Shown: positions 37,097-60,324, counted from the first letter of the stretch. The stretch is DNA of 64,000 bases from Candidatus Aminicenantes bacterium (GCA_963702005.1 OY969696.1:3328001-3392000), one strand, 5' to 3'. Notes: generated from the letters alone by a model not told the origin. Made by a program: numbers and translations.

Positions 37097-37143
37097 CGTC
37101 CTTTCACGGCATCCCAGACAGGGTACGTGAATCGTCGGCGGCT

Positions 37144-37226
37144 GTCAAATCATCGACACCCATACTAAGCCGTTTTCAGCTTAGTATGAGTACTGCAAGG
37201 CTGGGTGGCGTCGGCGAACGGGTCAA
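37144..37226. mobile_element. Miniature palindromic element, unit A
   Basis: GTCAA-atcatcga-CACCCATACTAAGCCGTTTTCAGCTTAGTATGAGTACTGCAAGGCTGGGTGGCG-TCGGCGAACGGGTCAA, homologous to the units at 38399, 42022/42092 and 59750. Confidence 0.75.
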
Positions 37227-37263
37227 ATAACCGATGGCCCCTGCGGTCGCCAACCCGTGAGAA

Positions 37264-37291
37264 TTGACACGCCGCCGAATCGACCTATAAT
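37264..37291 (+). promoter_or_regulatory. Consensus sigma70 promoter TTGACA-N16-TATAAT
   Basis: Perfect hexamers upstream of the zinc peptidase gene. Confidence 0.8.
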
Positions 37292-37313
37292 AAATAAAGT
37301 CGAATAGAGAGGT

Positions 37314-38009
37314 ATGGCTATGCTTTTTCATGATTCCACTTTTTTTCTTTTAATACCGCCCCTCATCCTGGCCCTCTATGCTCAAGCCAAGGTGCGGGGG
37401 ACCTACGCCAAATTCAGTCGCATCATCGCCTCGTCGCGGATCACGGGCGCCGAGGCCGCCCGCCAGCTCCTCCAGACGGGGGCGGCCGGAGACGTCCCAA
37501 TCGAGAAGATCCCGGGCCAGCTCAGCGATCATTACGACCCGCGCAAGAAGGTCCTGCGCCTCTCGGCCGGCGTTCACGACAGCAACTCGATCGCCGCCCT
37601 GGGCATCGCCGCCCACGAAACCGGACACGCCCTCCAGCACCACAACCACTACGGACCGCTCTATCTCCGGAACGCCATCTACCCGGTGGCCAATATCGGG
37701 TCGACCCTCGCCTTCCCGCTCTTCTTCATCGGGTTCCTGATGAGCCGCCGGGGACCGAGCCTCTTGATGGACCTGGGAATCTTCCTCTTCGCCGGCGCGG
37801 TCGCCTTCTCGATCATCACGCTTCCGGTGGAGTTCAACGCCTCCAAGCGGGCCATGGTCCTGCTCGAGGAGCGAGGCTTCCTGAACAAGCAGGAGCTGGG
37901 CGGGGCGCGGGCCGTCCTCTCGGCGGCGGCCTTGACCTACGTCGCGGCCACGGCCATGGCGGCCATGCAGCTCCTCCGTATGTTCATGCTGCGTCAGTCG
38001 CGCGATTAG
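37314..38009 (+). CDS. Membrane zinc metallopeptidase (YugP/Zn_peptidase_2 family)
   Basis: LSDHYDP, AAHETGHALQ, TLPVEFNASKRA and AAALTYVA motifs. Confidence 0.92.
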   Translation: MAMLFHDSTFFLLIPPLILALYAQAKVRGTYAKFSRIIASSRITGAEAARQLLQTGAAGDVPIEKIPGQLSDHYDPRKKVLRLSAGVHDSNSIAALGIAAHETGHALQHHNHYGPLYLRNAIYPVANIGSTLAFPLFFIGFLMSRRGPSLLMDLGIFLFAGAVAFSIITLPVEFNASKRAMVLLEERGFLNKQELGGARAVLSAAALTYVAATAMAAMQLLRMFMLRQSRD

Positions 38010-38011
38010 CG

Positions 38012-38060
38012 ATCGGGGCCAAGCCTGCGCTTTGCCGCAGAGCGCAGGCTTAGCCCCGAT
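38012..38060. terminator. Long inverted repeat between convergent genes (possible bidirectional terminator)
   Basis: ATCGGGGCcAAGCCTGCGCTTTG-ccg-CAGAGCGCAGGCTTaGCCCCGAT. Confidence 0.6.
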
Positions 38061-38065
38061 TACGA

Positions 38066-38326
38066 TTATGTCTCTTGGGGGGCGACTTTGAACAGTTTAT
38101 CGCCTTTATGGACGGGCTCGGCCACCTTCATGGCCACTTCCGCCCCCGGCCCGGCCGAATCAACCTTCCGATGATCGATCTCCAGGGAAGCGACCGGCTG
38201 GGTGAATTCCCTGGCATGCCCCGCGATCAGAATCGTCTCCCCGACCTTCAAATCGCCGCTGAGCTGGACGACGGCCACCCCGATATGGTTGAAATAGTGG
38301 GTCACCTGACCGATGCAAACGTCCAT
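38066..38326 (-). CDS. Small translation elongation factor-like (EF-Tu domain II-type beta-barrel) protein
   Basis: IGQVTHYFNHIGVAVVQL..LKVGETI..G..FTQPVASLEID..GAEVAMKV..PVHKGDKLF; AAGGAG RBS. Confidence 0.8.
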   Translation of the reverse strand: MDVCIGQVTHYFNHIGVAVVQLSGDLKVGETILIAGHAREFTQPVASLEIDHRKVDSAGPGAEVAMKVAEPVHKGDKLFKVAPQET

Positions 38327-38398
38327 CGCTCCCTCCTTGACAAAGCGCTGGGGAAAAGCCTTCCGCTACAAGAACAATATATCCGGCCGAAGGCCTAA

Positions 38399-38466
38399 GT
38401 CAACCCCTCGACACCCAGGGAAACCATGAGTACTGCAAGGCTGGGTAGCGTCGGCGAACGGGTCAA
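38399..38466. mobile_element. Miniature palindromic element, unit B (short hairpin variant)
   Basis: GTCAACCCCTCGACACCCA-gggaaacc-ATGAGTACTGCAAGGCTGGGTAGCGTCGGCGAACGGGTCAA. Confidence 0.75.
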
Positions 38467-38559
38467 CCTTGCCTATTCACGGCCTTGACAGGGCCTCATC
38501 CCGGGTGTAGAAAGATGTCTTGCCCTTGCTCCGGACCCCTCACTCACAAGGAGGTTTCG

Positions 38560-41160: not shown

Positions 41161-41180
41161 CCGCGGCCGGAATTCGTCTT

Positions 41181-41978
41181 CTAGTCGTACTTGATCTCGG
41201 TCTCGACCGTGAAATATTTATAGTTCTTATAGATGACGGAGATTCGGGCGTTCACGAATATCTTTCCGTCTTCATCGGCATACGCCTGCTCGCTGAAATT
41301 CCGGCTGGGAAAACGCAGCCCGTTTTTCTCGAAGCCGTATTCGGAAAAAGCGCTGACCTGGGGGACGGCGTTGTGGGTCTTGGCCCACTCTTCAATGCTC
41401 TGGAAGTTCCCGAGCGACTTCTGGTCCCAGACGATCTTCAGGACGCTGCCGTCGTCCTCCTTGATCCAGACCCTGCCCCAAGGATGCGGCTCACTGAGCC
41501 GAGGCCCCGGCACAGCCTCGATCACCACCGCCTTTTCCTTGTTGAAGATCTCGTCCCCGACAATTTGATATTCTAAATAAGCTTGCCAGGATTCGCTCAG
41601 CAGCCCGATCGGCCCGAAGAAGACATTCTCGTACTGGAACATGGCCGTTTTCAGCGTGGAGTCCCGGCTATCCGCCTTCTTTCCGTTGACCGCTAAAAGG
41701 TTTCTTTTTTCCTGGGCCGCCTGATTCTTCCGGATGAATTGATAGTCGTACAAATAGACGTCGGTATGGGGGGACCAATAGCGTGAAAACTCCGTCACTT
41801 CCTCAAGGCAGACGAAGTCGAGCGCGGCCCTATCCAGGCGCCGGCAGTAGTCCTCCGATTTTTTCAGGATCGCGGCCAGCCTCGGCTGGTCGGCGTGTGG
41901 ATGGGGAGTGAGCCGGAGGGAGGACACGCAGACTGCCGCGGCTAGGATGAAGACCTTTCCGGCGAAACTGCGGGCCAT
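41181..41978 (-). CDS. Secreted hypothetical protein
   Basis: Signal-like N-terminus; LDFVCLEEV...GRVWIKEDDGSVLKI...YKNYKYFTVET beta-rich pattern; upstream promoter present. Confidence 0.7.
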   Translation of the reverse strand: MARSFAGKVFILAAAVCVSSLRLTPHPHADQPRLAAILKKSEDYCRRLDRAALDFVCLEEVTEFSRYWSPHTDVYLYDYQFIRKNQAAQEKRNLLAVNGKKADSRDSTLKTAMFQYENVFFGPIGLLSESWQAYLEYQIVGDEIFNKEKAVVIEAVPGPRLSEPHPWGRVWIKEDDGSVLKIVWDQKSLGNFQSIEEWAKTHNAVPQVSAFSEYGFEKNGLRFPSRNFSEQAYADEDGKIFVNARISVIYKNYKYFTVETEIKYD

Positions 41979-42021
41979 TCTCCCCCGTCCATCGGAAATA
42001 ATAGGGGGCCGTCCTGTATCT

Positions 42022-42176
42022 GTCAACCCCTCGATTCCCCGGCCATCAGGCCGGGGCTTGTATAGGGGTAACCCTGAGCCTCGGCGAACGGGTCAACCCC
42101 TCGACACCCATACTAAGCCGTTTTCGGCTTAGTATGAGTGCTGCAAGGCGGGGCTAAGGGTCGGCGAACGGGTCAA
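42022..42176. mobile_element. Tandem dimer of miniature palindromic elements (C1 42022-42096, C2 42092-42176)
   Basis: Two units, each GTCAACCCCTCGA...TCGGCGAACGGGTCAA, sharing the central GTCAA and carrying different internal hairpins. Confidence 0.8.
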
Positions 42177-42315
42177 GCCGCGATCGGCGGCGGCCTGGCC
42201 TACAACTTTTTCGGCGCCGCCGGCGTTCTACTCCGCATCCGTCATCCCGCGGCGCTGGACATTCAGCGTTCCAGAAATTACTTCAGAAACTCCGCCGCGA
42301 AGGGGGAAGCCTTGA

Positions 42316-42844
42316 TCATCCGGCGAGCTCGCGGATCCGGTCGAGGTCCAGCTCGCCCTTGGCCCCCCAGCCGCGCACGCCTTCGGGAATTTGGGGACGG
42401 AACCGCTCATACAACGAAAAAGCGCGGACGGCTAATTCTTGAGGCTCCCAAGCGCGCGAAAGCTCTTCCATGGCCCGCCGAACGGATGGAAGCGCCTCTC
42501 CGAATTTGCCCTCGAGATACCTCTCGACTCCGTCGGGTTCGACCGGCCGGCTTCCCTCCACGGCACGGATGCCGTGGTCGGTCTTTAGGGCGGGAAGAGG
42601 GCGGCCGAGAAGCTCGAACCCAGAACATCTCTCCCGGCCGGGCTCTCTTCGGAGGAGCGGTCTCGGGCCGCTCGGGCGGCTTGTAGATGCCGAGGCGGCG
42701 CCCCTTGGACTGGGCGTTGAGCCCGGCCAGGACCTTGCCCAAAGAAAGCGACGCCTCACGGTTAAAGCCCAGCCGCTCGGCCACCACGCTGGCCCACAGA
42801 GTCAGCACCGGCGCTCGATTGACTTGGACGACAACGCGTGCCAT
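42316..42844 (-). pseudogene. Conserved hypothetical protein split by a +1 frameshift near 42617
   Basis: The N-part VNRAPVLTLWASVVAERLGF...SKGRRLGIY continues in another frame as ELLGRPLP...YLEGKFG...LYERFRPQIPEGVRGWGAKGELDL. Deleting one T in TGG GTT CGA restores W-V-E-L-L-G. Confidence 0.7.
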
Positions 42845-42989
42845 CCGAATCCGTTTACTCGATGCCTAATTCTTCCAGGAACTGGTTCGAGAATAACAAT
42901 AAGAGGAGCAAACGTCAATTGACACCTCCTCTCATCATGATTTATTATCCCAGCCGGCGGAACGTAGGTCCCTTCCAGGAGAAACAAAA

Positions 42990-45104
42990 ATGAAAAAAAG
43001 CGCGACTTCTAAACAACCGCTTGGACTCATCGGAATCATCGTCTTAGCGGCCGTTATCTGCGGTCCGGCCCGGGCCGCGGACAACGCCCGCCGCGTCCCC
43101 ACCGTTGACGATCTCCAGGCGCTGCAATCGCCCGGACGGGCCGAGATTTCTCCCGATGGCGCTTTAATCGCCTACACGTTGACCGAGACGGATCTTACCA
43201 AAGATTCCTACCTCACTCACATCTGGTTGGCCGAAACGGCCACCGGCAAGCGCTTCCAGCTTACCCGCGGCGACAAATCCTGCAGCAGCCCCGGCTGGTC
43301 GCCCGACGGACATTGGCTGGCCTTCACAAGCGACCGCGCCGGCGATAAGAGCCAGGTCTTCATCATCAGCCCGACGGGGGGAGAAGCCATCCAACTCACT
43401 AAAGCCGAGAACGGCGTTGGGGACTTCGGATGGTCTCCGGACGGCCGGATGCTGGCTTTTTTAGCCGCCGAGCCGGAATCGAAAACCCTCAAGAATCGCA
43501 AAGACTATCTGGGCGATTTTGACGTCGTGCATAAGGACTATAGCTACGTCCAGCTATGGACGGTCGATGTCGCCGAGGCCCTGAAGAGCCCGCAGCCCGG
43601 ACGGCAGCGGACAAAAGGGACCGGCTTCAGCCTGAGCTCTTTCAGCTGGTCCCCCGACGGCGGCAGGATCGCCTTCAGCGCGACACTCAACCCCGACCTT
43701 ATTCAAGGGGGCACGGAGGATGTCTATGTCCTGAACCTGGCCGATGATTCGGTCAAGAAGATCGTCGTTCAGCCCGGCCCGGATTCCTCGCCCCACTGGT
43801 CTCCCGACGGTGGGAAGATCCTTTTCTCGACCTATCTGGGCCAGACCCGTTTTTATCCCCTCGTTTCCAGGCTGGCCGTCGTTTCCCCGGACGGCGGCCC
43901 TGTCCGGTCGCTGACCGACGGCTTCGATGAGGACCCCGGGTTCGTGGCCTGGACCGCCCAGGGAATCTATTTCTCGGCTCTGCAAAAAACCGCCTCCCAC
44001 CTATTCCGGCTCGACCCGGCGACATCGCAAATCGAGCGGATCAGCGCGCCCGACGATTTTCTCGGGGATTCGTTCTCTCTCAGCCGCGATGGAAAACAGC
44101 TGGGCTTCATCGCCGCCTCGGCCGTTTCGCTTTCCGAAGTCTATGTCTCGGGCCTGCCCTTCAAGCCGCGGCGCCTGACCGATCTGAACGAGCAGACCAA
44201 GTCTCTTATTCTGGGAACTCGCGAAGTCATAACCTGGAAAAGCAAAGACGGCGTCGACATCGAAGGCGTTTTGATCAAGCCCGCGGACTTCAGCCCCGCT
44301 AAAAAATACCCCTTGTTGTGCGTCATCCACGGCGGTCCCACCGGCATCGACCTTCCCGACCTCCTCGAGTCCGACAGGTACGTTTATCCGTCCGATATCT
44401 GGGCCGCCCGCGGCGCCTTGATCCTCAAGGTCAACTACCGCGGCAGCGCGGGCTACGGACAGAAATTTCGAGAGCTGAACTATCGCAATCTGGGCGTCGG
44501 CGACGCTTGGGACGTCCTCTCCGGCGTCGACTATCTTATTCAAAAGGGGTGGGTGGATCCTGGGCGCATGGGCTGCATGGGCTGGAGCCAGGGCGGATAC
44601 ATCTCGGCCTTCTTGACGACGTCGTGCGACCGGTTCAAGGCCGTCTCCGTCGGCGCCGGCATTTCGGACTGGGCGACCTATTACTACAACACCGATATCA
44701 CTCCCTTCACCGTCAATTACCTGGGCGCCAATCCGGTGGACGACCCGCGCATCTACCTGAAGACCTCGCCCATGTCCTATATCAAAAAGGCCCGGACGCC
44801 GACCCTCATCCAGCATGGGGAGCTGGACCGGAGGGTCCCTATTCCCAACGCCTATGAGCTGAGACAGGGCCTCGAGGACCGGGGCGTGCCCGTGGAGATG
44901 ATCGTTTATAAGGGCTTCGGCCATGGGATCCGAAAGCCCAAGTCGAGGCGGGCCGCCATGGACCACAACCTGGCTTGGTTCAACCATTATATTTTCGGCG
45001 ATCCGAAGCCTGATTTTGCGAATCCGTCGGTTCCCGAAAAGACGGATCAACCGACCGGCGCTTCGACGGCGCCCGAAGCCAAGAAGGGATTGCTTTTATA
45101 TTGA
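42990..45104 (+). CDS. Secreted S9 family (acylaminoacyl/dipeptidyl) peptidase
   Basis: WSPDG propeller repeats, IHGGP, NYRGSAGYG, and the GWSQGG / HGELDRRV / GFGHG catalytic triad. Confidence 0.93.
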   Translation: MKKSATSKQPLGLIGIIVLAAVICGPARAADNARRVPTVDDLQALQSPGRAEISPDGALIAYTLTETDLTKDSYLTHIWLAETATGKRFQLTRGDKSCSSPGWSPDGHWLAFTSDRAGDKSQVFIISPTGGEAIQLTKAENGVGDFGWSPDGRMLAFLAAEPESKTLKNRKDYLGDFDVVHKDYSYVQLWTVDVAEALKSPQPGRQRTKGTGFSLSSFSWSPDGGRIAFSATLNPDLIQGGTEDVYVLNLADDSVKKIVVQPGPDSSPHWSPDGGKILFSTYLGQTRFYPLVSRLAVVSPDGGPVRSLTDGFDEDPGFVAWTAQGIYFSALQKTASHLFRLDPATSQIERISAPDDFLGDSFSLSRDGKQLGFIAASAVSLSEVYVSGLPFKPRRLTDLNEQTKSLILGTREVITWKSKDGVDIEGVLIKPADFSPAKKYPLLCVIHGGPTGIDLPDLLESDRYVYPSDIWAARGALILKVNYRGSAGYGQKFRELNYRNLGVGDAWDVLSGVDYLIQKGWVDPGRMGCMGWSQGGYISAFLTTSCDRFKAVSVGAGISDWATYYYNTDITPFTVNYLGANPVDDPRIYLKTSPMSYIKKARTPTLIQHGELDRRVPIPNAYELRQGLEDRGVPVEMIVYKGFGHGIRKPKSRRAAMDHNLAWFNHYIFGDPKPDFANPSVPEKTDQPTGASTAPEAKKGLLLY

Positions 45105-46207
45105 TCCGCAAGGACGGAATCGGCGCGGCGCTTTCGGCAGCGATCATGGCCGCGGCCTTCTCGGTGGGCGGGTGTTCCCAAAAAATAGCGGATCGAAACG
45201 CGGGAAGACCCGGGTCCGCTCAAGTCCGGACTCCGGCGATCGTCCTCCGTGAGGATATTTTCGTCACGGCCCCCTTCGCCCAATGCCATGCGTCGACGAT
45301 CGTCGAAACCGGATCGGGCCTGGTCGCCGCCTGGTTCGGGGGCACGGCGGAGGGCCATTCGGACGTCGGGATCTGGCTGTCCCGCCGGGAAGGCCGCGGT
45401 CCTGGCCGCAGCCTTCCCGGCAGGGCGGCCTGGTCGCCCCCCGTCGAGGTTGCCTCGGGCGGCCGGACCGGGGAAGATAGCCAGCCTTGCTGGAATCCCG
45501 TCCTCGTCAATCCTGAGGGCGGGCCGCTGCTCCTTTTCTATAAGGTGGGACCTTCCCCGTCCCGCTGGAGGGGAATGACGACCTATTCGACGGATGACGG
45601 CCGGACCTGGGCCGAGCCGCGAAGTCTGCCCGATGGGATCGTCGGCCCGGTCAAGAACCATCCCCTCGAGTTCCCGGACGGGATGATCCTCTGCGGGAGC
45701 TCCACCGAGCAGGACGGATGGCGCGTTCATTTCGAACAGACCGGCGACAAGGGACGGAGCTGGCGGCGGACTCCTCCCATCAACGACGGCCGGCTATTCG
45801 GGCTGATCCAGCCGGCCCTTCTGCGGACCGGCGGCGACGGGGTTACGGCCCTGATGAGGAGCACGGCGGGCCGCATCTATTACGCCCGGAGCGCGGACCG
45901 GGGAGCGACTTGGTCAAAGCCGGAAGCGCTGGATTTGCCGAACCCGAACTCGGGCATCGATGCGGTGACTCTCCGGGACGGACGGCAGCTGCTGGTTTTT
46001 AATCCGGTCAGCCGGGGCCGAAGCCCGCTGTCCGTCGCTCTCTCCGAAGACGGCCGAAACTGGACCCAGGTTCTGATCCTCGAGGACGAGGAAGGGGCCG
46101 AGTTTTCCTACCCGGCGATCATCCAGTCCAAAGACGGACTCGTCCACGTCACCTACACCTGGAAGCGCCTGAGGATCAGGCACGCGGTCCTCGATCCCGG
46201 CCGCTAA
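45101..46207 (+). CDS. BNR/Asp-box sialidase-like lipoprotein
   Basis: CHASTI, AAWFGGTAEG, STDDGRTW, SADRGATW, PNPNSG and FSYPAI motifs; VGGC lipobox. Confidence 0.87.
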   Translation: MIRKDGIGAALSAAIMAAAFSVGGCSQKIADRNAGRPGSAQVRTPAIVLREDIFVTAPFAQCHASTIVETGSGLVAAWFGGTAEGHSDVGIWLSRREGRGPGRSLPGRAAWSPPVEVASGGRTGEDSQPCWNPVLVNPEGGPLLLFYKVGPSPSRWRGMTTYSTDDGRTWAEPRSLPDGIVGPVKNHPLEFPDGMILCGSSTEQDGWRVHFEQTGDKGRSWRRTPPINDGRLFGLIQPALLRTGGDGVTALMRSTAGRIYYARSADRGATWSKPEALDLPNPNSGIDAVTLRDGRQLLVFNPVSRGRSPLSVALSEDGRNWTQVLILEDEEGAEFSYPAIIQSKDGLVHVTYTWKRLRIRHAVLDPGR

Positions 46208-46281
46208 CAAAAGAGCGGAACGGGATAATTCGAAGATTGACAAAACCGGGCGCGCCGGGAACAATGGGAGAGAGGCGGCCC

Positions 46282-47778: not shown

Positions 47779-47792
47779 CGAGGAGGGATCCG

Positions 47793-50496: not shown

Positions 50497-50550
50497 CCGC
50501 TTCGTCACCGCTGGCCGGGATCAAGTTCTGAGACGGCCCTCGGCTCGCTA

Positions 50551-51966
50551 TTAGAAGATTTTTCCGGGATTCAGGATGGCGTCGGGATCGAAGACGCGCT
50601 TGATCCCCTTCATGAGCTCGATTAGAACGAGGTCGGTGGATCGCGCCAAGTAATCCTTCTTGACCAGCCCGATCCCGTGCTCGCCCGAGACGACGCCGCC
50701 CCGGCGCCGGCCGTCCTCGTAGATGGCGGCCCGGACTTTCTCGAACTTGGGCCGCCACTCCTCCTCGGGAATTGGGACCATCCGGTTTCCCCCGCAGCGA
50801 ACTTTCATGATGTGGGTATGGACGTTCCCGTCCGCGGCGTGCCCGAAGGTCGGAAGCCAGATATCGTTTTCGAGTCCGATTTCATGGACGCGCTTGACGT
50901 GGCCGGGAATCTCGGCCCGGGGGAGCGAGATGTCGAGGATCTCGACCGTCCCCGACTTGATGGCTTCATAGATTTTACTCCGGATCTGAAGGACCTCGTC
51001 CTGTTTCTTGGCCGTGTCGGCGATGTAGACGTCGATCCCTCCCCTCTCCATACAAACAACGGCGACCTCCTCCGAAAGGCGGTCCATCTCGGCCTCGGTC
51101 GCGGCGTCGAGGATGATGAGGAGGTCGGTCGTGCCCAGGCTCGAGGGCCAGTGCAGGCGGAGATAATCCTCGGTGATCCGGATGACATCCCTGTCCACAA
51201 ACTCGACGGCCAAGGGGGAGATGCTCCGTTGGAGGAGGATGGGAACCGTCTCGATGGCCGAGGCCAGGTCCCGATAGGGAATGATGAGCGAGCGGGTCAG
51301 CTTGAAGGGCGGCAGAATCTGAACGATCGCCCGGGTGATGACGCCCAGCGTCCCCTCCGAACCGATCATCAGGTGGAGGAGGCTGTAGCCGGAGCTCGTC
51401 TTGACGTACTTCCCGCCCAGCCGGACGATCTCGCCCCTGGGCAAGACGACCTCCAAGCCGCGTACGTAATTACGGATGACGCCGTATTTCACGGCACGGC
51501 TGCCGCCCGCGTTCGTGGCGATCAAGCCCCCGATCATGGCGCTCTCGTCGCCCGGGTGGGGCGGGAAGGCGAAGCCCCGCTCCTCGACGGCCTTCACGAA
51601 TTCGCCGAGCGTGACGCCCGCCTCGACCACGGCCACTTGGTTGGCCGCGTCGACCTCGACGACCCGGTTCATCCGCTCGAGCGAGAGGACGATCCCGCCC
51701 TCGACCGGGACGCAGCCTCCGCAGAGGCCGGTCGCGCCGCCCCGCGGCGTCACGGGAAAGCGCTCGCGGTTGGCGAGCCTGAGAACGGCGGCCGCCTCCC
51801 CGGTCGTCCGGGGCTTGACGACGGCTTCGGGGAGACGGGCGATCTCGCGGAGCGAAAACTCGTCGTGCCCGTAATCGACGATCCGTTCCGGGTCGACGAG
51901 GAGGCCGCCCTCTCCGACGATCCCGGTTAACTCTTCGAGGATGACGGCCGTCAGTTTATTGTACAT
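50551..51966 (-). CDS. FAD-linked oxidase (GlcD / D-2-hydroxyacid dehydrogenase family)
   Basis: PRGGATGLCGG, IGGLIATNAGG, GSEGTLGVIT, FGHAADGNVH, SGEHGIG and DPDAILNPGK. Confidence 0.92.
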   Translation of the reverse strand: MYNKLTAVILEELTGIVGEGGLLVDPERIVDYGHDEFSLREIARLPEAVVKPRTTGEAAAVLRLANRERFPVTPRGGATGLCGGCVPVEGGIVLSLERMNRVVEVDAANQVAVVEAGVTLGEFVKAVEERGFAFPPHPGDESAMIGGLIATNAGGSRAVKYGVIRNYVRGLEVVLPRGEIVRLGGKYVKTSSGYSLLHLMIGSEGTLGVITRAIVQILPPFKLTRSLIIPYRDLASAIETVPILLQRSISPLAVEFVDRDVIRITEDYLRLHWPSSLGTTDLLIILDAATEAEMDRLSEEVAVVCMERGGIDVYIADTAKKQDEVLQIRSKIYEAIKSGTVEILDISLPRAEIPGHVKRVHEIGLENDIWLPTFGHAADGNVHTHIMKVRCGGNRMVPIPEEEWRPKFEKVRAAIYEDGRRRGGVVSGEHGIGLVKKDYLARSTDLVLIELMKGIKRVFDPDAILNPGKIF

Positions 51967-52014
51967 CGCACGCTTCTACAGAATAACGGCGCGGGGACGG
52001 CAACGCAAGAGAGC

Positions 52015-53778
52015 CTAATACCTCCAGCTGGCGAGGTCGGCGCCGGCCGGGGCCGTCTTGAGAATCCGCTCGACGATCCGGGGGATGAACATCTGGTGGT
52101 AGCGCAACCTCGAGATGTAATTGGGTCGGGTGTGGTCCCCGTTCCAGCAGTGTTCGGCCCGGTCGCCGTAATCGACCTCGCCGTCATAAGGAGGGTCCGC
52201 GGCGCTTTTCAGGAAGTCCTCCATGAAGTAGACGGCGTTGTTGAGGTAGTAATTATCCATGTCCCCGCAGTAGATGTGGATCTTTCCCCTGAGCTTGGGG
52301 CCGAGCGTTTTCCAGTCGCGCTCCAGGATGTAGCGGAGGTCGCTCCTCTCGCGCCAGTAGGCGGCCACCGTCGGATCGATCTCGCCCGTCAGCTTGTCCC
52401 AGATCGGCTTGGGGTAGCCGTCCTCGCCGACCGGCCCGAACACGGCCTGCCAGATGTCCCATTGATCGCCCGATCGCGATCGGTTCCCCAGGACGAACTC
52501 ACGGCGGTTGGTTTCTTCGAGAGTGGCGCCGACTTCCCCCAGATAATTCCGGAGCCCGGGCCGCGGCGTTCTCTTCCAGAGGCTGTCGACGTAGTAGGCG
52601 TTCTTGTGTTCGTAGATGTTGACGATCGTGTAGGCGCGGAAATCGATCGGGTCGGGGCAGGCAGCCCAGCAGCCGTTGTAGTCGTCGGGATAGAAGATCT
52701 GAGCGGCCAGCGACTCCCAGCCCCCCGTCGAACCGCCGTATAGAAACCGGGCCCAGCCCTTCCCGGTCCCCCGGTACTTCTTCTCGATATAGGGAATAAG
52801 CTCGTAGGTGATGGCGTCGCCGTAGGGGCCGAGGTTCGCCGAGTTGACGGCGTAGGAGTCGTCATAATAAGGATTGGCGTGCTGGATCATGACCAGGATG
52901 ACCCGCGGAAATTCCTTGGAAGTCCAATCCTTGTAGAATTGATAGGCGTATTCCTGCTGGATTTTATTGTAGCCGTGGATCCGGAACCGCTCGCTGTAAT
53001 CGGGCTTGAGGTCCGGGTCGGGAGGCGTCTCTCGGAAGCCGTCGAAGGTGGCGGGGAAGTGGCCGTGGTTGATGACGAGCGGGTAGCGGGCCCCGGGATG
53101 CTCGTCGAAACCCTCGGGCAGCAGGATACAGGCTCCGAGGTCCATGGGCCGTCCCCAGAACTCGGACAGGAGTTTGCTCCGGATCTTTTCGTGTTTGATA
53201 TATTTTGTGTCCTGGGGAGGCGGGATGGGAGGGATTTCCTTGTCGAGCACGACGGGAATGATCTCGCCGCGTCCGGGGTCGTAATCGATCTTCCGGGGCG
53301 TGCTGATGAGGTTTCCGGGCGCCGTGTTCCAGCGCTGTCCCTCTCCCCTGTCCATGGGGAGCTTCACGGTGTGGCCGTCCGCGCGGTGGAAGGTCTCATA
53401 ACGGTGGAGGAGGGCCTGGACCCAATACTCTCCGCGCGGAACATCGAGGAGGCTTTTCAGCGGATAGCCGAGCGCGGAGCCGTCGATGACGGCGGCCTGG
53501 CCGGGCTTGAGGCCGTCCAGGTCGACGCCGAAGACGAGCTGCGTCCCGGCGCCGTCGCTGATCTGGAAGCGGGGCTCGCTCGTCGGGTCGGTCGAGATCA
53601 TGAGGAGGAGCCGGCCGTCGAGCGGCTCACAGCAAACCGTTTCGGGGAAAGAAATATTGAATCGGGGACCTGCCGCCCGAGCCGCCGTTTGGGCCGAGCC
53701 AAGGGCCGGGATGACGACGAAAAGGACGGCGGCGGCCGCAGCGAACGCGGGGCCAAGCCGGAAATATTTAGGGCTCAT
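52015..53778 (-). CDS. Secreted alpha/beta-hydrolase (putative esterase-like) protein
   Basis: Signal peptide, DSYAVNSANLGPYG, nucleophile elbow GGSTGGW; AAGGAGG RBS. Confidence 0.75.
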   Translation of the reverse strand: MSPKYFRLGPAFAAAAAVLFVVIPALGSAQTAARAAGPRFNISFPETVCCEPLDGRLLLMISTDPTSEPRFQISDGAGTQLVFGVDLDGLKPGQAAVIDGSALGYPLKSLLDVPRGEYWVQALLHRYETFHRADGHTVKLPMDRGEGQRWNTAPGNLISTPRKIDYDPGRGEIIPVVLDKEIPPIPPPQDTKYIKHEKIRSKLLSEFWGRPMDLGACILLPEGFDEHPGARYPLVINHGHFPATFDGFRETPPDPDLKPDYSERFRIHGYNKIQQEYAYQFYKDWTSKEFPRVILVMIQHANPYYDDSYAVNSANLGPYGDAITYELIPYIEKKYRGTGKGWARFLYGGSTGGWESLAAQIFYPDDYNGCWAACPDPIDFRAYTIVNIYEHKNAYYVDSLWKRTPRPGLRNYLGEVGATLEETNRREFVLGNRSRSGDQWDIWQAVFGPVGEDGYPKPIWDKLTGEIDPTVAAYWRERSDLRYILERDWKTLGPKLRGKIHIYCGDMDNYYLNNAVYFMEDFLKSAADPPYDGEVDYGDRAEHCWNGDHTRPNYISRLRYHQMFIPRIVERILKTAPAGADLASWRY

Positions 53779-53861
53779 GTCGACTCCTCCTTTGTCCGGG
53801 TCCGGCCGGACCGGCCGCCCGGTCATAGACCATTAGACACCGGGCGCGGGAGGGCCGTCAA

Positions 53862-56800
53862 CTAGACGCGTTCGCCCCGGCGGAACTTTGCCCCGAAATT
53901 GTCCAGGATCACGTAAACCACGGGCACGACGACCAGGGTCAGGATGGTCGAGCTGATCAGGCCGCCGATGATGGTGAAGCCGATGGCCTGGCGAAAACTG
54001 GCGCTCGCCCCCAGGCCCATGGCCACCGGGATCATGCCCAGGATCATGGCCATGGTGGTCATGAGGATCGGCCGCAACCGGGTCGAGCCCGCCTCGACGA
54101 TGGCCTCGGACAGCTTCGATCCCCGCCGGCGCAAGACGTTGGTGTAGTCCACGAGCAGGATGGAGTTCTTGGTGACCAGGCCCATGAGCATGATCAGCCC
54201 GATGAACGCCACCATGTCGAAGAACTTGTTGGCCAGGAGCAAGCCCAGGACGGCGCCGATGACCGACAGGGGCAAGGCCAGCATGATGACGAAGGGTTGG
54301 ATAAACGAGCCGAACTGCGAAGCCAGGATCATGTAAACGAAGATGATCGCCAGGAACAAGGCCAGGGTCAGGGAGCTGAACATTTGCCGGCTCATCTCGA
54401 CCTGCCCGCTGTACTCAAAACTCACGTCGCTCGGAAATCGGGTGCCGGTCATCATGGCGCTGGCTTTTTGGGTGATCTCGCTCATGGCCCGGCCCTTGAG
54501 GATGTTGGCCGAGATGCTGATGCGGCGGGTGCGGTTGGTGCGCTTGATCTGGGTCGGTCCGTTGACGATTTTAAGCTGGGCGACCTGGTCCAGAGTGATC
54601 GATCCGCCCCGCAGCGTGGGAAGATAGGCCTGGCGGATTTTGTCCAGATTGTCCCGAACGTCCTCCGAGGCGCGGACGCGGATATCGATAAGCTTCTCGC
54701 CCTCGCGATATTTGGAGGCCAAGTCGCCGTCGATCAGGGACCTCATGAGAGAGGCCACCTGAAAAGTCCCCGCGCCCAGCCGGGCGGCCCGGTCGCGGTC
54801 GATTTGAATCTGGATCTCGGGCTTGGGAGGTCTGTTGTTGCTGTTGATATCGACCAAGCCGCTGATGCCCTGCAGGCCCCGTACGACCTCGTCGCTGGCC
54901 TTGGTCAGATGGCCAAGGTCCGTCCCCTTAAGGTCGATCTGAATGGGAAGCTGCTGCATCGTGGAGAAAGCGGCGCCGCCCATGGTCTGGGCTTCCTGGA
55001 AGGTGATGGTCGCACCGGGAATGCCGCTGAGCATGGGCCGCAGGCGGTCCTGATAAGCCTGGGCTTCCTTAGTGGGGAGGTTCAACTTGACATTGATTGT
55101 GGCGACGTCCGATGCGCCGTCGGTCGTACCCACGATGGCGGCCAGGTTCGTGATTTCTGTCTGCTGGCGAAGAATCGCTTCAATCTTCCGGACGATCCGG
55201 TCGGTCTGGTCCAGAGAACTGCCCGAGGCGGTTTGGACGGACAGGTTGAATTCGGGCTGCTGGCCATGAGGGAAGCCGCCCGTTCCGACCAGGGTAAATA
55301 GGTAGGCGCTCATCGCAAAGACAACGATCGTGATGAGGACCATCGTCTTGCGGTGGCTGATCGCCCAGCGCAAAACGGGGCGATAGTTGTTGCCCAGCTT
55401 TTCATAGAATTTGGAGACAAGGCCCTCGAAGCGCGAAGCCAGGGTCTTCCGGCCGCCCTTTTCGGCCTTCCTGAAGAAGTAGGCCGAGAGCATGGGCGCG
55501 AAGGTGAAGGCCTCGAACAGGGAGATCAGGACCGCGGCCGCCACGGTCACGCCGAACTGGCGGAAGAATTTCCCGGCGATGCCCGCGGTGAAGGCCACCG
55601 GCAGGAAGACGGCCACGATGGTCAATGTGGTGGCCATGACCGCCAGCCCGACCTCTGAGGTGCCGTCGCTGGCCGCCTGGCGCGGGGACTGGCCCAGCTT
55701 GTCCATGTGGCGGAAGATGTTCTCCCGGACGACGATGGCATCGTCGATCAGCAGCCCGACCGAGAGGCTCAAGGCCATCAGGGTAATGACGTTGACCGTA
55801 TAGCCCAGGGCGCTCATGACGGCGAAGACGCCGATAATACACACCGGCAGGCCAGCAACGGTGATGATCGTATTGCGCAGGTCGCCGAAGGAAAAGAGGA
55901 CGACCAGGCCGGCGAACAGGATACCCAGGATCAGGCTTCTGATGACCTCGTCCCGGGAATTTTTGATCATGACCGAGGTGTCGACGGTCGGCCGGATTTC
56001 GAGGTCAGGGTTGGCGGCCTCGATGCGGGCCAGGGTCTTATAGACCTGGTCGGCCACCTTGACCGTATTGGTCCCGGACTGCTTCTGAACGACCATGGAA
56101 ATATCCTCCTTGCCGTTCAGACGAGAGATCGTCCGCTTAGTCTTGTAGCCGTCCTTGACCGTGGCGATGTCCTTGAGGAAGACCGGAGTGCCGGCAACCG
56201 TGGCGACGGGGATATCCAGCATTTCCTGGAGGCTCTGGAACTCGGCCTTGGTTCGGATCAGAAAGTCCTGGGACTTCTCGGTCACCCGGCCGGCGGGAAG
56301 GTTGAGGTTTTCGCCCCGGACGGCCTGGCTGACCTGGGTGATGCTGATGCCCAGGGCGTTCATTCGATCGAGGTTCACATCGACCTGAATTTCCCGCTCC
56401 AATCCGCCGATGATGTTCACCGCGCCGACGCCGTCCACCTGTTGGATGAAGGGCTGGATATGATCCTCGATATAGGTCCGCAGCTGGGGCAGATTCATCT
56501 TGTCGCCCTTGCTCTGAACGCCGAAGGATACGACCGGCGCCGCCGACGAGTCGAACTTGTCGATGATCGGCTCAATGATCTCCCGGGGCAGGGTGTTGCG
56601 GATGGCCGCAACTTTTTCCCGGACCTCGGTGGCGGCCAGCTGGGCGTCTTTCTCCAAGACGAATTGAGCCACGACGATCGAGACCCCTTCGGAGGACGTC
56701 GAATAGAGCTTGTCCAAGCCGTTGAGAGTGCTCAGGACGTCCTCGATGGGCTTAGAAACCTGGGATTCCATTTCCTCGGGTCCCACGCCGGGGTTGGCCA

Positions 56801-56945
56801 CGGTGACGGCCACGATCGGCAGCGTGATGTCGGGCATCAGGTCGACGCCCAGCCGGGAATAGGACAGGCCGCCGATGACCACCAGGGCGAGGATGATCAT
56901 CGTTATGAAAACGGGCTGCTTGATGGAAATATCGGCAATTCTCAT
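53862..56945 (-). CDS. RND efflux transporter permease (AcrB/HAE1 family)
   Basis: GVDLMPDI, GLLIDDAIVVRENI, GLVTKNSILLVD and RLRPILMTT motifs. Confidence 0.95.
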   Translation of the reverse strand: MRIADISIKQPVFITMIILALVVIGGLSYSRLGVDLMPDITLPIVAVTVANPGVGPEEMESQVSKPIEDVLSTLNGLDKLYSTSSEGVSIVVAQFVLEKDAQLAATEVREKVAAIRNTLPREIIEPIIDKFDSSAAPVVSFGVQSKGDKMNLPQLRTYIEDHIQPFIQQVDGVGAVNIIGGLEREIQVDVNLDRMNALGISITQVSQAVRGENLNLPAGRVTEKSQDFLIRTKAEFQSLQEMLDIPVATVAGTPVFLKDIATVKDGYKTKRTISRLNGKEDISMVVQKQSGTNTVKVADQVYKTLARIEAANPDLEIRPTVDTSVMIKNSRDEVIRSLILGILFAGLVVLFSFGDLRNTIITVAGLPVCIIGVFAVMSALGYTVNVITLMALSLSVGLLIDDAIVVRENIFRHMDKLGQSPRQAASDGTSEVGLAVMATTLTIVAVFLPVAFTAGIAGKFFRQFGVTVAAAVLISLFEAFTFAPMLSAYFFRKAEKGGRKTLASRFEGLVSKFYEKLGNNYRPVLRWAISHRKTMVLITIVVFAMSAYLFTLVGTGGFPHGQQPEFNLSVQTASGSSLDQTDRIVRKIEAILRQQTEITNLAAIVGTTDGASDVATINVKLNLPTKEAQAYQDRLRPMLSGIPGATITFQEAQTMGGAAFSTMQQLPIQIDLKGTDLGHLTKASDEVVRGLQGISGLVDINSNNRPPKPEIQIQIDRDRAARLGAGTFQVASLMRSLIDGDLASKYREGEKLIDIRVRASEDVRDNLDKIRQAYLPTLRGGSITLDQVAQLKIVNGPTQIKRTNRTRRISISANILKGRAMSEITQKASAMMTGTRFPSDVSFEYSGQVEMSRQMFSSLTLALFLAIIFVYMILASQFGSFIQPFVIMLALPLSVIGAVLGLLLANKFFDMVAFIGLIMLMGLVTKNSILLVDYTNVLRRRGSKLSEAIVEAGSTRLRPILMTTMAMILGMIPVAMGLGASASFRQAIGFTIIGGLISSTILTLVVVPVVYVILDNFGAKFRRGERV

Positions 56946-56958
56946 GGGCGGCCGCTCC

Positions 56959-57870
56959 TTATTTCTGTTCCGTCGCGGAGTCGATGATCTTGATCTTATC
57001 CTTGTCGTTAAGCTGGCCGGCTCCGGTGGTCACCACCCGCTGGCCGTCCTTGAGCCCGGCCAGGATCTCGATGACGTCGCCGGCCACGGTCCCCACGGTC
57101 ACCGGGGCGAGGAGGGCGCGTCCGCCGTCCGCCAGAAAGACGAATTTTTCGCCGGCCCGCTCGACCACCGCGGTCAGGGGCACGACCAGGGCCGAACGCT
57201 TGCTCTCCAGCCACTCGGCCTCGGCGTACATGCCGGGCTTGATCCGGTAGCCGGGATTGGGCAGGGTCAGTTCGACCTCGACCGTCCGGTTGACGGAGTT
57301 GGCGATGGGACTGATGTTGGTCACCCGGGCCCGGAAGGTCTCGCCCGGGTAGGCCTCCAGCGTCACGTCGGCGGCCTGGCCCATCTTGATGAAACGGATC
57401 TTCTTTTCGTCGACGGCGGCCACGGCCTTGACCTTGTCGATGTCCACCAGGGTCATCAACGGGACGGCGGGGTTCACGGCCGCGCCCGGATTCTGAAGAA
57501 GATGAGAGACCACGCCCTTGACGTCGCTCTTGACCTCGAAGTCCTTGAACTCAAACCCGATCTCGTCGCGGCTGACGACGGCCACGGTTTGGCCGGGCTT
57601 GACGACGCTGCCCAGTTGGACCAAGTTTTGGGTGATCTTGCCCATGACCTTGGAATAAAGGGTGATCTCCGCCGTGGCCTGGACGTTGGCCGAGGCGTGG
57701 ATTTTTTCCGTGATCTCGATCGTCGACGGCAGGGCGGTCTCGACCGGCACGACCTTCTCGACCACGGGCTGGTTGGCCGCGGCCTTTTTAGCCGAGTAGT
57801 TGACGTAGGCCCGGTAGCCGATGAAGGCCGCCAGCGCCGCCAGGATGAGGATGATGATGACTTTCTTCAT
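56959..57870 (-). CDS. RND periplasmic adaptor (membrane fusion protein)
   Basis: N-terminal anchor, lipoyl-like halves with almost no helical hairpin, RIKPGMYA and GLKDGQRVVTTG. Confidence 0.9.
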   Translation of the reverse strand: MKKVIIILILAALAAFIGYRAYVNYSAKKAAANQPVVEKVVPVETALPSTIEITEKIHASANVQATAEITLYSKVMGKITQNLVQLGSVVKPGQTVAVVSRDEIGFEFKDFEVKSDVKGVVSHLLQNPGAAVNPAVPLMTLVDIDKVKAVAAVDEKKIRFIKMGQAADVTLEAYPGETFRARVTNISPIANSVNRTVEVELTLPNPGYRIKPGMYAEAEWLESKRSALVVPLTAVVERAGEKFVFLADGGRALLAPVTVGTVAGDVIEILAGLKDGQRVVTTGAGQLNDKDKIKIIDSATEQK

Positions 57871-57884
57871 GGTGGATCCCTTTT

Positions 57885-59201
57885 TCACTCGTAGATTTTT
57901 TTGCCCACGGCCCGGTCCAGGTTATAGCGGGCGAGGATATGGTTGTAAAGAAGCTGGAGATAGTTGAGTTTGGCGGAGTTCAGATTGTTCTGCGACTCCA
58001 CGTAGTCCGTGGCGCTCATCAGGCCCTTTTGATAGCGGTCCTCGGCGATCCGGAGCGCGTCCTCGGCCTGCTTGATCTTGAGCTTTTCGATCACGATCTT
58101 GTCCTCGATCGTGCGCAGGTCGGACAGGTTGGTTTCGATCTCCATTCTGATCGTCTGCTCCAAATTCTTGCGCTGAAGGTCGATCGTCTTCAGGCCGGAC
58201 AAGCCCTCGGCCACCAGGGCGTTCGTCCGGAAGCCGTCAAAGACCGGGAAGCTCAAGGTCAGTGAGGCCATGAAGTTGCCCTTGATCTGGTTGATGTTGG
58301 GCAGGTAGCCGTTCCGGAAATCATAGTTGAGGCCCAGGATGAGGCTGGGTCTGTTGGCGGCCTTCTCGATGTCGATGCCCAGTTGAGTGATCCGGGACTG
58401 GTGGGTCAATTGCTCGAACTCGATCCGCTGGGCGCGGGCGGCGGCCGTCAAGGCCCCTTCGTCCGCGTCTAGAGGCGTGTAGTCCACCTGCCCGTCCGGG
58501 TCGAGGACGGCGTCGGCCGGACGCCCGGCCAGGATGTTGAAGCCGATATTGAGCTTGCGGATGTTGTTCTCGAAGTCCAGGCGCTGGCCGTTCAAGATGC
58601 TGATCTGGACCTCCAGGGTCGAGGTGTCGAAGCTCGAGACGAGACCGGCCTTATAGCGCTCGGTCATGATGTCCCGCTTCTGCTCGAGCAGCTTGATGTT
58701 GTCATCCAGGACCCTTATAGCCTCGCGGAGGAAGATGATGCCGTAGAAGATCGGGGCGACCTGATAGGATACGATCTGCTTGGTCATGTCCAGGCCGTCC
58801 TTGGCTAGCTCCACCCCGGTCCGGCTGAGCTCGATCGATTTTTGGATGCGCCCAAAGGTGAAGAGCTGTTCGGCGGCCGTGGCCCGGAAATCATAGTTAT
58901 TGGGAACCCCGAACTTGGCCTTGTAGGTCTGGCCGAAGAAGGAGATCTCGAACTGCTGGACCAGGGTCATCCGGGTGTAGGTCCCCCCGATGTTCACTTG
59001 GGGGAACAGTTGGCTCTTGCTCTCGTCGACCTTCAGCGCCGCCCCGGCCACGGATTCGCCGGCGATTTGCAGAGCGGGGCTGTTCCGGAGGGTCAAGTCG
59101 ATGCATTGCTTGAGGGTCAATTTGTCCTGGGCCCGGAGGCCGGATGCGGAGACCAGCAGGGTTGCGAGCACGGCGATGGTCCTCGTTAGGATGGGTGTCA
59201 T
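57885..59201 (-). CDS. TolC-family outer membrane efflux protein
   Basis: Signal peptide, duplicated OEP repeats (RYKAGLVS, RYQKGLMS) and LSFPVFDG. Confidence 0.9.
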   Translation of the reverse strand: MTPILTRTIAVLATLLVSASGLRAQDKLTLKQCIDLTLRNSPALQIAGESVAGAALKVDESKSQLFPQVNIGGTYTRMTLVQQFEISFFGQTYKAKFGVPNNYDFRATAAEQLFTFGRIQKSIELSRTGVELAKDGLDMTKQIVSYQVAPIFYGIIFLREAIRVLDDNIKLLEQKRDIMTERYKAGLVSSFDTSTLEVQISILNGQRLDFENNIRKLNIGFNILAGRPADAVLDPDGQVDYTPLDADEGALTAAARAQRIEFEQLTHQSRITQLGIDIEKAANRPSLILGLNYDFRNGYLPNINQIKGNFMASLTLSFPVFDGFRTNALVAEGLSGLKTIDLQRKNLEQTIRMEIETNLSDLRTIEDKIVIEKLKIKQAEDALRIAEDRYQKGLMSATDYVESQNNLNSAKLNYLQLLYNHILARYNLDRAVGKKIYE

Positions 59202-59230
59202 GGGTGCGCTCCTTGAAAAACCTTGCTCTA

Positions 59231-59719
59231 TCAAGCCGGCATTTTGGCGGATTTCCTGTCGTGCCGGACCAGAATGCGAACCAAGGACTCGATGGCCCGG
59301 ACCATGTCCCGGCGGTCCGCCCCGTCGAGCCTTTCCAGAAATTCCTTGATATTCCCCATCAAGCCTTGCTCGAAGTCCTTGATGGCGGCCCGTCCCCGCG
59401 GCGTTATGCGTAGGAGGACCTTCCTCCGGTCATCGGGGGCGTGCCCGCGCAGGACGAGGCCGTCCCGGACCATCCGGTCCAGGAGCTCGGACAGGGTGTT
59501 CTTCTTGACGTTGAGGCTGGCCGAAACGTCGGTCGGGTGGTGAGGTCCACAGCATTCCAGGCACTTCAGGATGTGATAGCGGACGACGTTGGTCTTGGAC
59601 TCGGTCTTGGCTTCCAGCGGGCGAACAGCGACAGGACCTATCCGGATGATGCCGTGGAAAAACCCGGTCAGCGTCATGACCTGGGACGAGACCCTGGCCA
59701 GTCGCTCCATATAGTTCAT
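59231..59719 (-). CDS. MarR-family transcriptional regulator
   Basis: LSELLDRMVRDGLVLRG..DDRRKVLLRITPRG winged helix; first gene of the efflux operon. Confidence 0.9.
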   Translation of the reverse strand: MNYMERLARVSSQVMTLTGFFHGIIRIGPVAVRPLEAKTESKTNVVRYHILKCLECCGPHHPTDVSASLNVKKNTLSELLDRMVRDGLVLRGHAPDDRRKVLLRITPRGRAAIKDFEQGLMGNIKEFLERLDGADRRDMVRAIESLVRILVRHDRKSAKMPA

Positions 59720-59725
59720 GGAGTG

Positions 59726-59754
59726 AATATATCGTATCACGAACCATTTGTCAA
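59726..59754 (-). promoter_or_regulatory. sigma70 promoter TTGACA-N17-TATATT with a TCGT-N3-ACGA inverted repeat in the spacer (candidate MarR operator)
   Basis: The reverse complement reads TTGACA aatggtTCGTgatACGA TATATT cactcc ATG. Confidence 0.7.
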
Positions 59755-59860
59755 CCCCTCAACTCCCCGGCATGAATGCGGAGGCTTGTTCGGGGTTAAC
59801 CCTGAGCCTTGCTTCTCGTCCCCGCCTTTCAGAGCGGGGTAGCGTCGGCGAACGGGTCAA
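59750..59860. mobile_element. Miniature palindromic element, unit D (longest; two IS605-like hairpins)
   Basis: GTCAACCCCTCAA-CTCCCCGGCATGAATGCGGAGGCTTG..GGGGTTAACCCTGAGCC..CCCCGCCTTTCAGAGCGGGGTAGCG-TCGGCGAACGGGTCAA. Confidence 0.75.
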
Positions 59861-59904
59861 GAAGCGGGAGCACAATATCTTCTACCAGGGGAGGCGCGAG
59901 AATC

Positions 59905-60321: not shown

Positions 60322-60324
60322 GCC

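Follow-up and report, generated by a model that had tools for sequence, protein, structure and literature searches.

The stretch analysed here, termed the window, comprises 64,000 nt of the genome of a Candidatus Aminicenantes bacterium (G000; a single contig of 4,309,361 bp, 60.4% G+C), in which it occupies positions 3,328,001 to 3,392,000. Positions are those of the window unless marked as genome positions. The window harbors five short, related repeat units at four loci, each adjoining a minus-strand gene and supplying, with its terminal TTGAC, the -35 box of a predicted promoter of that gene. The units belong to a non-coding family that inserts at the pentanucleotide TTGAC and probably moves as single-stranded DNA. 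The units and the adjoining promoter-like sites are as follows.

37144..37226, minus strand: unit A, 83 nt, single-hairpin type; the active (minus) strand reads TTGAC followed by CCGTTCGCCGA...GTCGATGATTTGAC
38399..38466, minus strand: unit B, 68 nt, the shortest form
42022..42096, minus strand: unit C, 75 nt, promoter-proximal partner in a head-to-tail pair
42092..42176, minus strand: unit D, 85 nt; GTCAA at 42092-42096 is common to units C and D
59750..59860, minus strand: unit E, 111 nt, two-hairpin type with a nested stem module and a CCCCGCC hairpin
37120..37148, minus strand: promoter-like site TTGACA-17-TACCCT, upstream of a TPR protein gene (35825-37090, minus strand); the -35 is the terminal TTGAC of the element
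38376..38403, minus strand: promoter-like site TTGACT-16-TATATT, upstream of a gene for an 86-aa protein (38066-38326, minus strand)
41998..42026, minus strand: promoter-like site TTGACA-17-TATTAT, upstream of a gene for a 265-aa protein (41181-41978, minus strand)
59726..59754, minus strand: promoter-like site TTGACA-17-TATATT, upstream of marR (59231-59719, minus strand)

The original prediction, made from the sequence of the window, described five related units at four loci with a shared right end, and this description holds. The right-end 16-mer TCGGCGAACGGGTCAA is present in five exact copies (at 37211, 38451, 42081, 42161 and 59845, all on the plus strand), compared to 0.07 matches expected by chance in the window with up to two mismatches; none of 100 shuffles reached six. 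The left end GTCAACCCCTCGA was found without mismatch at 38399, 42022 and 42092 and with one mismatch at 59750, the unit at 37144 starts with GTCAAATCATCGA, and GTCAA opens every one of the five units. Taken alone, the left motif GTCAACCCCTCGA with up to two mismatches is not above chance in the window (five matches, 2.68 expected; 12 of 100 shuffles reach five). The prediction had also identified the left GTCAA as the -35 of a properly spaced minus-strand promoter at all four loci. The four promoter strings it quoted are all present and all four predicted promoters read into the adjoining minus-strand gene, so that, judged by sequence only, an outward -35 hexamer at the element tip is combined with a -10 of the flank at a distance of 16-18 nt at four of four loci. 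According to Pfam, the downstream genes encode a TPR protein (37144 locus) and a MarR regulator (59750 locus), the 86-aa protein at the 38399 locus has weak EF-Tu/EF-G domain-2 matches below the curated cut-off, and the 265-aa protein at the 42022 locus matches no family. No Rfam match (E up to 1) was obtained between 36000 and 61000. Matches to Y1, TnpB-type or Y2 domains and copies of the IS110-type element described below were not found inside the window, whose open reading frames (ORFs) were not all scanned for other transposase families.

In the whole genome, the right-end 16-mer was found 82 times exactly, 117 times with at most one mismatch and 151 times with at most two. Copies were delimited with a mask of repeated 15-mers (k=15; the noise was too high with k=11 or k=13). 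This yielded 117 elements or arrays with a length of 40 nt or more, 94 of them with GTCAA at the left boundary. The array lengths form clusters at 68-86, 109-116 and 143-155 nt, with a minimum of 68 and a maximum of about 333 nt. Both ends are constant (CCGTTCGCCGA... at one boundary, ...GGGGTTGAC at the other), and the interior consists of hairpin modules, the combination of which differs between copies. The elements have no coding capacity. The junction between units C and D is among four exact tandem junctions in the genome, to which one with a mismatch can be added; each shares a single GTCAA. A subfamily of 112 nt comprises 13 to 14 copies, and since these are 99-100% identical to one another, the family must have been active very recently.

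The insertion of the family at TTGAC was evident from a genome of the same genus (G001), the flanks of which are about 80-90% identical. Five of six resolvable orthologous loci are empty in G001 and have a single TTGAC with both flanks matching, as had been expected for relatives. The empty loci correspond to 37144, 38399 and 42022 and to genome positions 2,949,258 and 3,815,712, while the sixth (genome position 3,822,332) is occupied in both genomes with different module content. Further empty sites were sought in four 20-kb stretches, where most loci were unresolvable, the G001 contigs ending or being rearranged. At 42022, the precise empty site gtatctGTCAAgccgcg is found in G001, which reads ...gtatctGTCAAgccgcggtcgg..., and in G000 the same flanks are parted by units C and D. 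At 37144, a single GTCAA with identical -35 and -10 sequences is found in G001, and at 38399 a single GTCAA is followed there by the same 'cct' flank; neither site holds the element. The promoter is already present at the empty G001 sites, with TTGACA-17-TATCAT at 42022. The proposal of a mobile, non-autonomous family inserting at TTGAC is thereby supported, as is the view that the terminal TTGAC of the element restores the -35 beside the spacer, the promoter-side TTGAC probably belonging to the element. A metagenome contig (run X3) has unit C joined directly to flank-like letters and lacks unit D; the tandem pair was therefore built in two steps. For the marR locus (unit E), orthologous flanks are absent from G001 and G002, hence there is no empty site for comparison, and no empty marR allele was seen in metagenome contigs of four runs covering 41500-60400, contigs that mostly break at repeats.

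Among 301 genomes of the phylum, in which right-end matches with one mismatch were compared with a reversed-pattern control, only G000 (117) and G005 (24) were clearly above background. G013 had four matches, and the remaining genomes had zero to four each, similar to the control; the tally includes two unpublished genomes, G192 and G064, with one match each, on neither of which any claim depends. G001, which is outside this sample, has 94 exact matches to a 17-mer. Of 91 genomes of the order, six contain an internal module motif (G000, 32; G001, 105; G005, 17; G025, 15; G336, 3; G013, 2). Within the genomes searched, the family is patchy and confined to a few genera of one order.

The elements are oriented in one way with respect to their target. 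The five bases after TCGGCGAACGG are GTCAA in 82 cases, GTCAG and GTCAT in six each, GTGAC in three and GTCAC, GTTAA and GTGAG in two each. TTGAC was found after TCGGCGAACGG at none of more than 100 right ends, and because TCGGCGAACGG never precedes TTGAC, the element has a single orientation to an asymmetric target. Where the two copies of the pentanucleotide differ, the variable one is always located 5' of the CCGTTCGCC end; this copy appears to behave as a target copy derived from the flank, an asymmetry that favours insertion without duplication. Moreover, the orientation follows replication. The sign of the GC skew switches near 0.48-0.5 Mb and near 2.76 Mb (dnaA is located at 504 kb). 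For 96-99 of the 117 right ends, the TTGAC strand is on the lagging-strand template (p about 1e-12 to 1e-14), a number that rises to 100 with the best-fitting terminus. Gene orientation cannot explain this bias, since only 54% of the called genes (1709 of 3174) are co-oriented with replication. The youngest subfamily agrees with it in all of its 13 copies, and the strand bias therefore arises at insertion. The polarity of a 0.6-kb IS200-like element, present in 11 nearly identical copies in G000, switches with the replichore too.

Single copies fold into hairpins as single-stranded DNA; of the copies folded, only the minus strand of unit A (83 nt, z-score -3.2) and the 75-nt unit (-2.4) surpass their shuffles. 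For an analysis of covariation, 17 left-end modules with diverse arms (two from the window and 15 from elsewhere in the genome) were picked by hand. In their stem, which starts at the last A of GTCAA, changes on both sides were found in five of six outer-stem pairs, 88.5% of the cells are paired, and none of 500 shuffles reaches the observed values. Compensatory change in the stem appears from these alignments, and its strength is overstated by the figures, the sequences being hand-chosen and the structure derived from them.

From the insertion, the target sequence, the fixed polarity, the replication-strand bias, the structured ends and the recent activity, all observed directly, we infer single-stranded HUH chemistry and a corresponding enzyme. 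With a probability of roughly two thirds, the elements are a non-coding, non-autonomous family that moves as single-stranded DNA in a manner similar to IS200/IS605 (HUH/Y1) and resembles palindrome-associated transposable elements (PATEs). This assignment is made because a fixed pentanucleotide, one polarity, the lack of good inverted repeats, structured ends with subterminal hairpins, strand bias and head-to-tail arrays are found together; the Y1/RAYT-type mechanism suggested in the original prediction fits the fixed target orientation and the strand bias. The elements would be mobilised by 'peel and paste', the active strand (5'-CCGTTCGCCGA...hairpin modules...GTCGAGGGGTTGAC-3') inserting 3' of TTGAC on the lagging-strand template. 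As the 3' end of the element is itself TTGAC, the sequence downstream of the insertion would again follow TTGAC. Because an intergenic TTGAC in this organism is very often, by sequence, the -35 box of a sigma-70 promoter and intragenic insertions are probably not retained, about half of the copies are found exactly at a -35, with the core promoter intact and the upstream DNA displaced. A replacement of the upstream (UP/activator) region, as predicted, would follow from this geometry.

Several points weigh against such a single-strand mechanism. Neither an autonomous relative nor a Y1 TnpA or RAYT gene flanked by the same ends, the search for which had been suggested, was found in G000, G001, G005, G013, G019 or G025, and no TnpB-type domain (PF07282) was detected in the G000 genome. 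The ends of the IS200-like element differ from those of the family, and its left flank is TTGCAC, not TTGAC. Neither G005 nor G013, both carriers of the family, yielded close homologues of its TnpA, an absence that is weak evidence since insertion sequences with many copies frequently go unassembled in draft genomes; such homologues were found in G017, where the TTGAC element was not detected. Most folds of single copies are no better than those of shuffles (z-scores of -0.3 to -0.6 in three of six), and the two ends have a weak inverted similarity after the pentanucleotide (six of nine positions, by eye). Furthermore, the single TTGAC at five empty sites and the fixed polarity leave a duplicated and an element-owned copy inseparable, so that sequence alone cannot tell an element ending in TTGAC and inserting without duplication from a 5-bp target duplication. 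Finally, the gene calls used for the promoter base rates given below stem from a crude, purpose-made caller.

Since the family was active very recently, its enzyme should be present. Candidates are the TnpA of the multi-copy IS200-like element, acting in trans, and a 312-aa protein similar to REP-associated tyrosine transposases (RAYTs; REP, repetitive extragenic palindromic), encoded at genome positions 713,758-714,693 and containing a Y1_Tnp domain; co-occurrence with the family across genomes is imperfect for both. Three divergent RAYT-like genes were found in G000, each flanked by repeats other than the TTGAC family. A second repeat family consists of palindromic doublets similar to REPINs (REP doublets forming hairpins), GGGGTCAAACCTACACTTTGTCAC...GTGACAAAGTGTAGGTTTGACCCC, with 68 half-sites (e.g. 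genome positions 650,004, 2,037,969 and 3,891,566). One such pair flanks the 312-aa RAYT-like gene, an arrangement that is also conserved in G001, G024 and G025, three further genomes of the order. Five of the 11 IS200-like copies (genome positions 717,274, 1,259,993, 2,083,742, 2,614,818 and 3,781,633) are located inside REPIN-like palindromes, directly after TTGCAC. The search for an IS91-type Y2 domain yielded a single degenerate remnant, located near 4.153 Mb; ends of the element are absent from the surrounding 2.5 kb or so, and this candidate was rejected.

The association of the family with promoters was compared with that of other TTGAC sites. Sites were termed promoter-like if a hexamer TAnnnT with at least four of six matches to TATAAT is located 16-18 nt after TTGACN, and all sites outside repeats in which TTGAC is followed by A, T or C served as controls. 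Intergenic controls were defined leniently, with high-confidence gene calls (82% coding), or strictly, with the remaining ORFs of at least 80 codons also taken as genic (91% 'coding'). Of the 94 arrays, 51 are promoter-like, and in 46 of these the start of a called gene in the same orientation follows at a distance of 35-300 nt. Among the controls, 28 of 2795 genic sites are promoter-like, compared to 413 of 1417 (29%) in the lenient and 371 of 830 (45%) in the strict intergenic set, and the true intergenic base rate lies between these two percentages. The intergenic control sites have the same peak of -10 hexamers at 17/18 nt as the elements. For all 94 arrays, the excess over the strict control is not significant (odds ratio 1.47, p=0.08). 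With an exact TTGAC as target copy, 50 of 76 arrays are promoter-like, and with a non-exact copy one of 18; for the exact-target arrays, stratification by the sixth base gives odds ratios between 2.2 (p=0.004, strict control) and 4.2 (p=4e-8, lenient control). As a rate, the enrichment is about 1.2-2.3 fold.

The excess among exact-target arrays could indicate that promoters are actively targeted, the machinery sensing bound RNA polymerase or sigma factor or promoter-linked melting and preferring the TTGAC of a -35 box. This excess is seen at spacings of 16-18 nt only and does not reflect a general AT-richness, 70 of 94 arrays are positioned 35-300 nt upstream of a co-oriented gene start compared to 530 of 830 controls (p=0.04), and about five of seven delimited copies in G005 are promoter-like by eye. 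None of 13 copies of the youngest burst is intragenic, compared to 61% of TTGAC sites, which is in line with promoter targeting as well; this avoidance of genes could be due to rapid purging or to a preference for intergenic DNA. However, the youngest and least-filtered subfamily is promoter-like at the base rate (4 of 14), and young copies (with a full-length twin of at least 97% identity) are promoter-like in 10 of 26 cases compared to 39 of 65 for older ones (p=0.10). In a sample of 15 delimited G001 copies, the values are four (strict) and eight (lenient). Elements favour TTGACT (50 of 94), in contrast to promoter-type controls, which favour TTGACA (269 with A, 70 with T), and in open complexes the -35 region remains double-stranded. 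Active targeting of promoters is thus considered improbable. Because the youngest burst and the G001 sample are at the base rate and TTGACT is preferred, the additional excess is best read as retention rather than as promoter sensing. The original prediction had described the element as promoter-seeking. The enrichment of promoter-type over other TTGAC sites that it expected does exist, while a targeting of the -35 box or of promoters as such is not supported as stated, the target being the pentanucleotide TTGAC. The promoter association mainly follows from this target and the base rate of intergenic -35 boxes, and most of the apparent rule that the units are always at a promoter is base rate, with 29-45% of intergenic TTGAC sites being -35 boxes by sequence.

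Other explanations concern the nature of the element and the enzyme. A classical MITE (miniature inverted-repeat transposable element) of the DDE type, with imperfect terminal inverted repeats and a 5-bp target duplication at a preferred GTCAA, would agree with the presence of the same five bases on both sides of every complete copy and with the six of nine positions shared by the inverted ends. Yet the polarity to a non-palindromic target is fixed, convincing inverted repeats are lacking, 82-85% of the copies follow the replication-strand bias, head-to-tail arrays share a single pentanucleotide, and differing copies always vary on the same side, which makes a DDE-type MITE very unlikely. From its constant position relative to promoters and from the conserved stem seen by covariation, the sequence might be suspected to be no insertion but a regulatory or RNA motif conserved upstream of promoters. 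Already contradicted by the precise absence of the element at the empty congener sites, by its occurrence in six of 91 genomes of the order, by the near-identity of some copies and by the lack of an Rfam match, this explanation is practically untenable. A mobilisation of the family by the 312-aa RAYT-like Y1 protein, as a satellite of the kind known from REP sequences and bacterial interspersed mosaic elements (BIMEs), would compete with the IS200-like TnpA only and not with the single-stranded model. Apart from its Y1_Tnp domain, it is suggested by the palindrome flanking the gene, GGGGTCAAACCTAC...GTAGGTTTGACCCC, the outer ends of which contain GGGTCAA/TTGACCC and resemble the junction of tandem elements, GGGTCAACCCC, and by full-length orthologues in G000, G001, G005 and G025, four of the six family-carrying genomes. 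It is doubtful, though, as the G001 orthologue (contig C140) is itself interrupted by a TTGAC-specific element, the G005 orthologue is flanked by an unrelated palindrome, G013 has a weak match only, and orthologues are also encoded in family-negative genomes (e.g. G024, G007, G009 and G032). Mobilisation in the manner of integron attC sites or by an IS110/bridge-RNA system was dropped from consideration, the ends being direct rather than inverted core sites and the target only five bases long.

Every right end in G000 with more than 1 kb of upstream repeat belongs to an element split by another insertion sequence. Three 'long elements' of 1.4 kb were accordingly rejected as autonomous copies, two being interrupted by an IS110-type element and one by a 1.35-kb insertion. 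The latter (genome positions 4,080,829-4,082,283) has imperfect inverted ends and a 7-bp duplication, CCCCTCG, and interrupts one copy of the repeat; its 408-aa ORF matches no Pfam family at E up to 0.001. The insertion sequence of the IS110 family (Pfam DEDD_Tnp_IS110 and Transposase_20) is present in three near-identical copies and one copy of 81% identity (genome positions 3,583,740-3,585,034, 4,076,343-4,077,637, 2,354,006-2,355,299 and 3,156,130-3,157,342). All four full copies are located inside copies of the TTGAC repeat, at the same point of a hairpin module (between ...ACT and CTCAT...). By analogy with some IS110 elements that target REP sequences, this element appears to target the TTGAC repeat specifically. 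In total, 15-mers occurring at least three times cover about 12% of the genome. For a bacterial genome of 4.3 Mb, this repeat load is unusually high.

At the marR locus (59717-59731), the -10 (TATATT) ends 6 nt before the ATG, and a leaderless or almost leaderless transcript is therefore predicted. Beyond unit E, the gene at 59905-60321 encodes a HepT-like RNase domain (toxin-antitoxin type), and the small ORF that follows (60325-60720) may encode its partner.

With an obligatory target that is the core of the -35 box and is regenerated by its own end, the family could spread through promoters without silencing them, swapping the upstream DNA. The matched promoter alleles, occupied in G000 and empty in the congener, provide a natural set for measuring the contribution of upstream sequences, and the family offers a clean case of replication-coupled, strand-specific transposition. 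A more speculative possibility, which we regard as unlikely, is that the host lineage retains the family as useful at promoters, the copies being portable upstream modules with a consensus -35 that are mobilised by a RAYT-like protein or by the IS200 TnpA, the latter acting on foreign ends. If so, each copy would insulate or reset the upstream control region, near-miss NTGAC sites could be upgraded to TTGAC, and the promoter excess would reflect selection for function and not mere tolerance.

The family shares several features with known systems. IS200/IS605 elements such as IS608 and ISDra2 likewise insert beside a fixed tetra- or pentanucleotide in a single polarity, lack good inverted repeats and have hairpin ends, and the left end of IS608 inserts 3' of a specific tetra-/pentanucleotide, into the lagging-strand template, as described in excerpts of PMC5027513. 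Unlike these, the TTGAC family contains neither tnpA nor tnpB, an autonomous relative sharing its ends was not encountered in the genomes named above, and interchangeable hairpin modules form its mosaic interior. The 3' end of IS608 is TCAA. The target of the TTGAC family is identical to the pentanucleotide at its own 3' end, whereas IS608 has the target TTAC (excerpts of PMC5027513), which differs from its end. A guide sequence of the IS608 type 5' of the hairpins was looked for by eye, and no consistent complementarity to TTGAC was seen.

The definition of PATEs in the excerpted part of PMC3119063 (palindromes near the termini, neither terminal inverted repeats nor a target duplication, and too short for a transposase) fits the family, and haloarchaeal PATEs also have heterogeneous interiors and a conserved terminal oligonucleotide. 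They are often struck by other mobile elements (PMC3119063, in part), comparable to the IS110-type element inside four copies here. The haloarchaeal PATEs are tied to IS605-type transposons with similar ends, as far as the same excerpt goes, whereas no such parent was found here; the TTGAC family furthermore has a bacterial host and a target that coincides with the -35 consensus. With REP, BIME and REPIN sequences, which are associated with Y1 (HUH) enzymes according to a portion of PMC3333891, the family shares the high copy number of intergenic hairpin repeats arranged in mosaics, and the ends of the REPIN-RAYT pair in G000 contain TTGAC. It differs in that the RAYT gene is flanked by a different repeat and in its asymmetric ends, pentanucleotide target and empty sites. 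In the literature searched, no description of a TTGAC-specific element at -35 boxes was found. Hybrid promoters arise where a -35 that faces outward from the tip of an insertion sequence is combined with a -10 of the flank. In the same way, the terminal TTGAC of the family is predicted to serve as the -35 for a flanking -10 at 51 of the 94 arrays. In contrast to insertion-sequence hybrid promoters, however, the promoter usually pre-exists, and since the same -35 and -10 are present at the empty sites of G001, the element restores a promoter rather than creating one.

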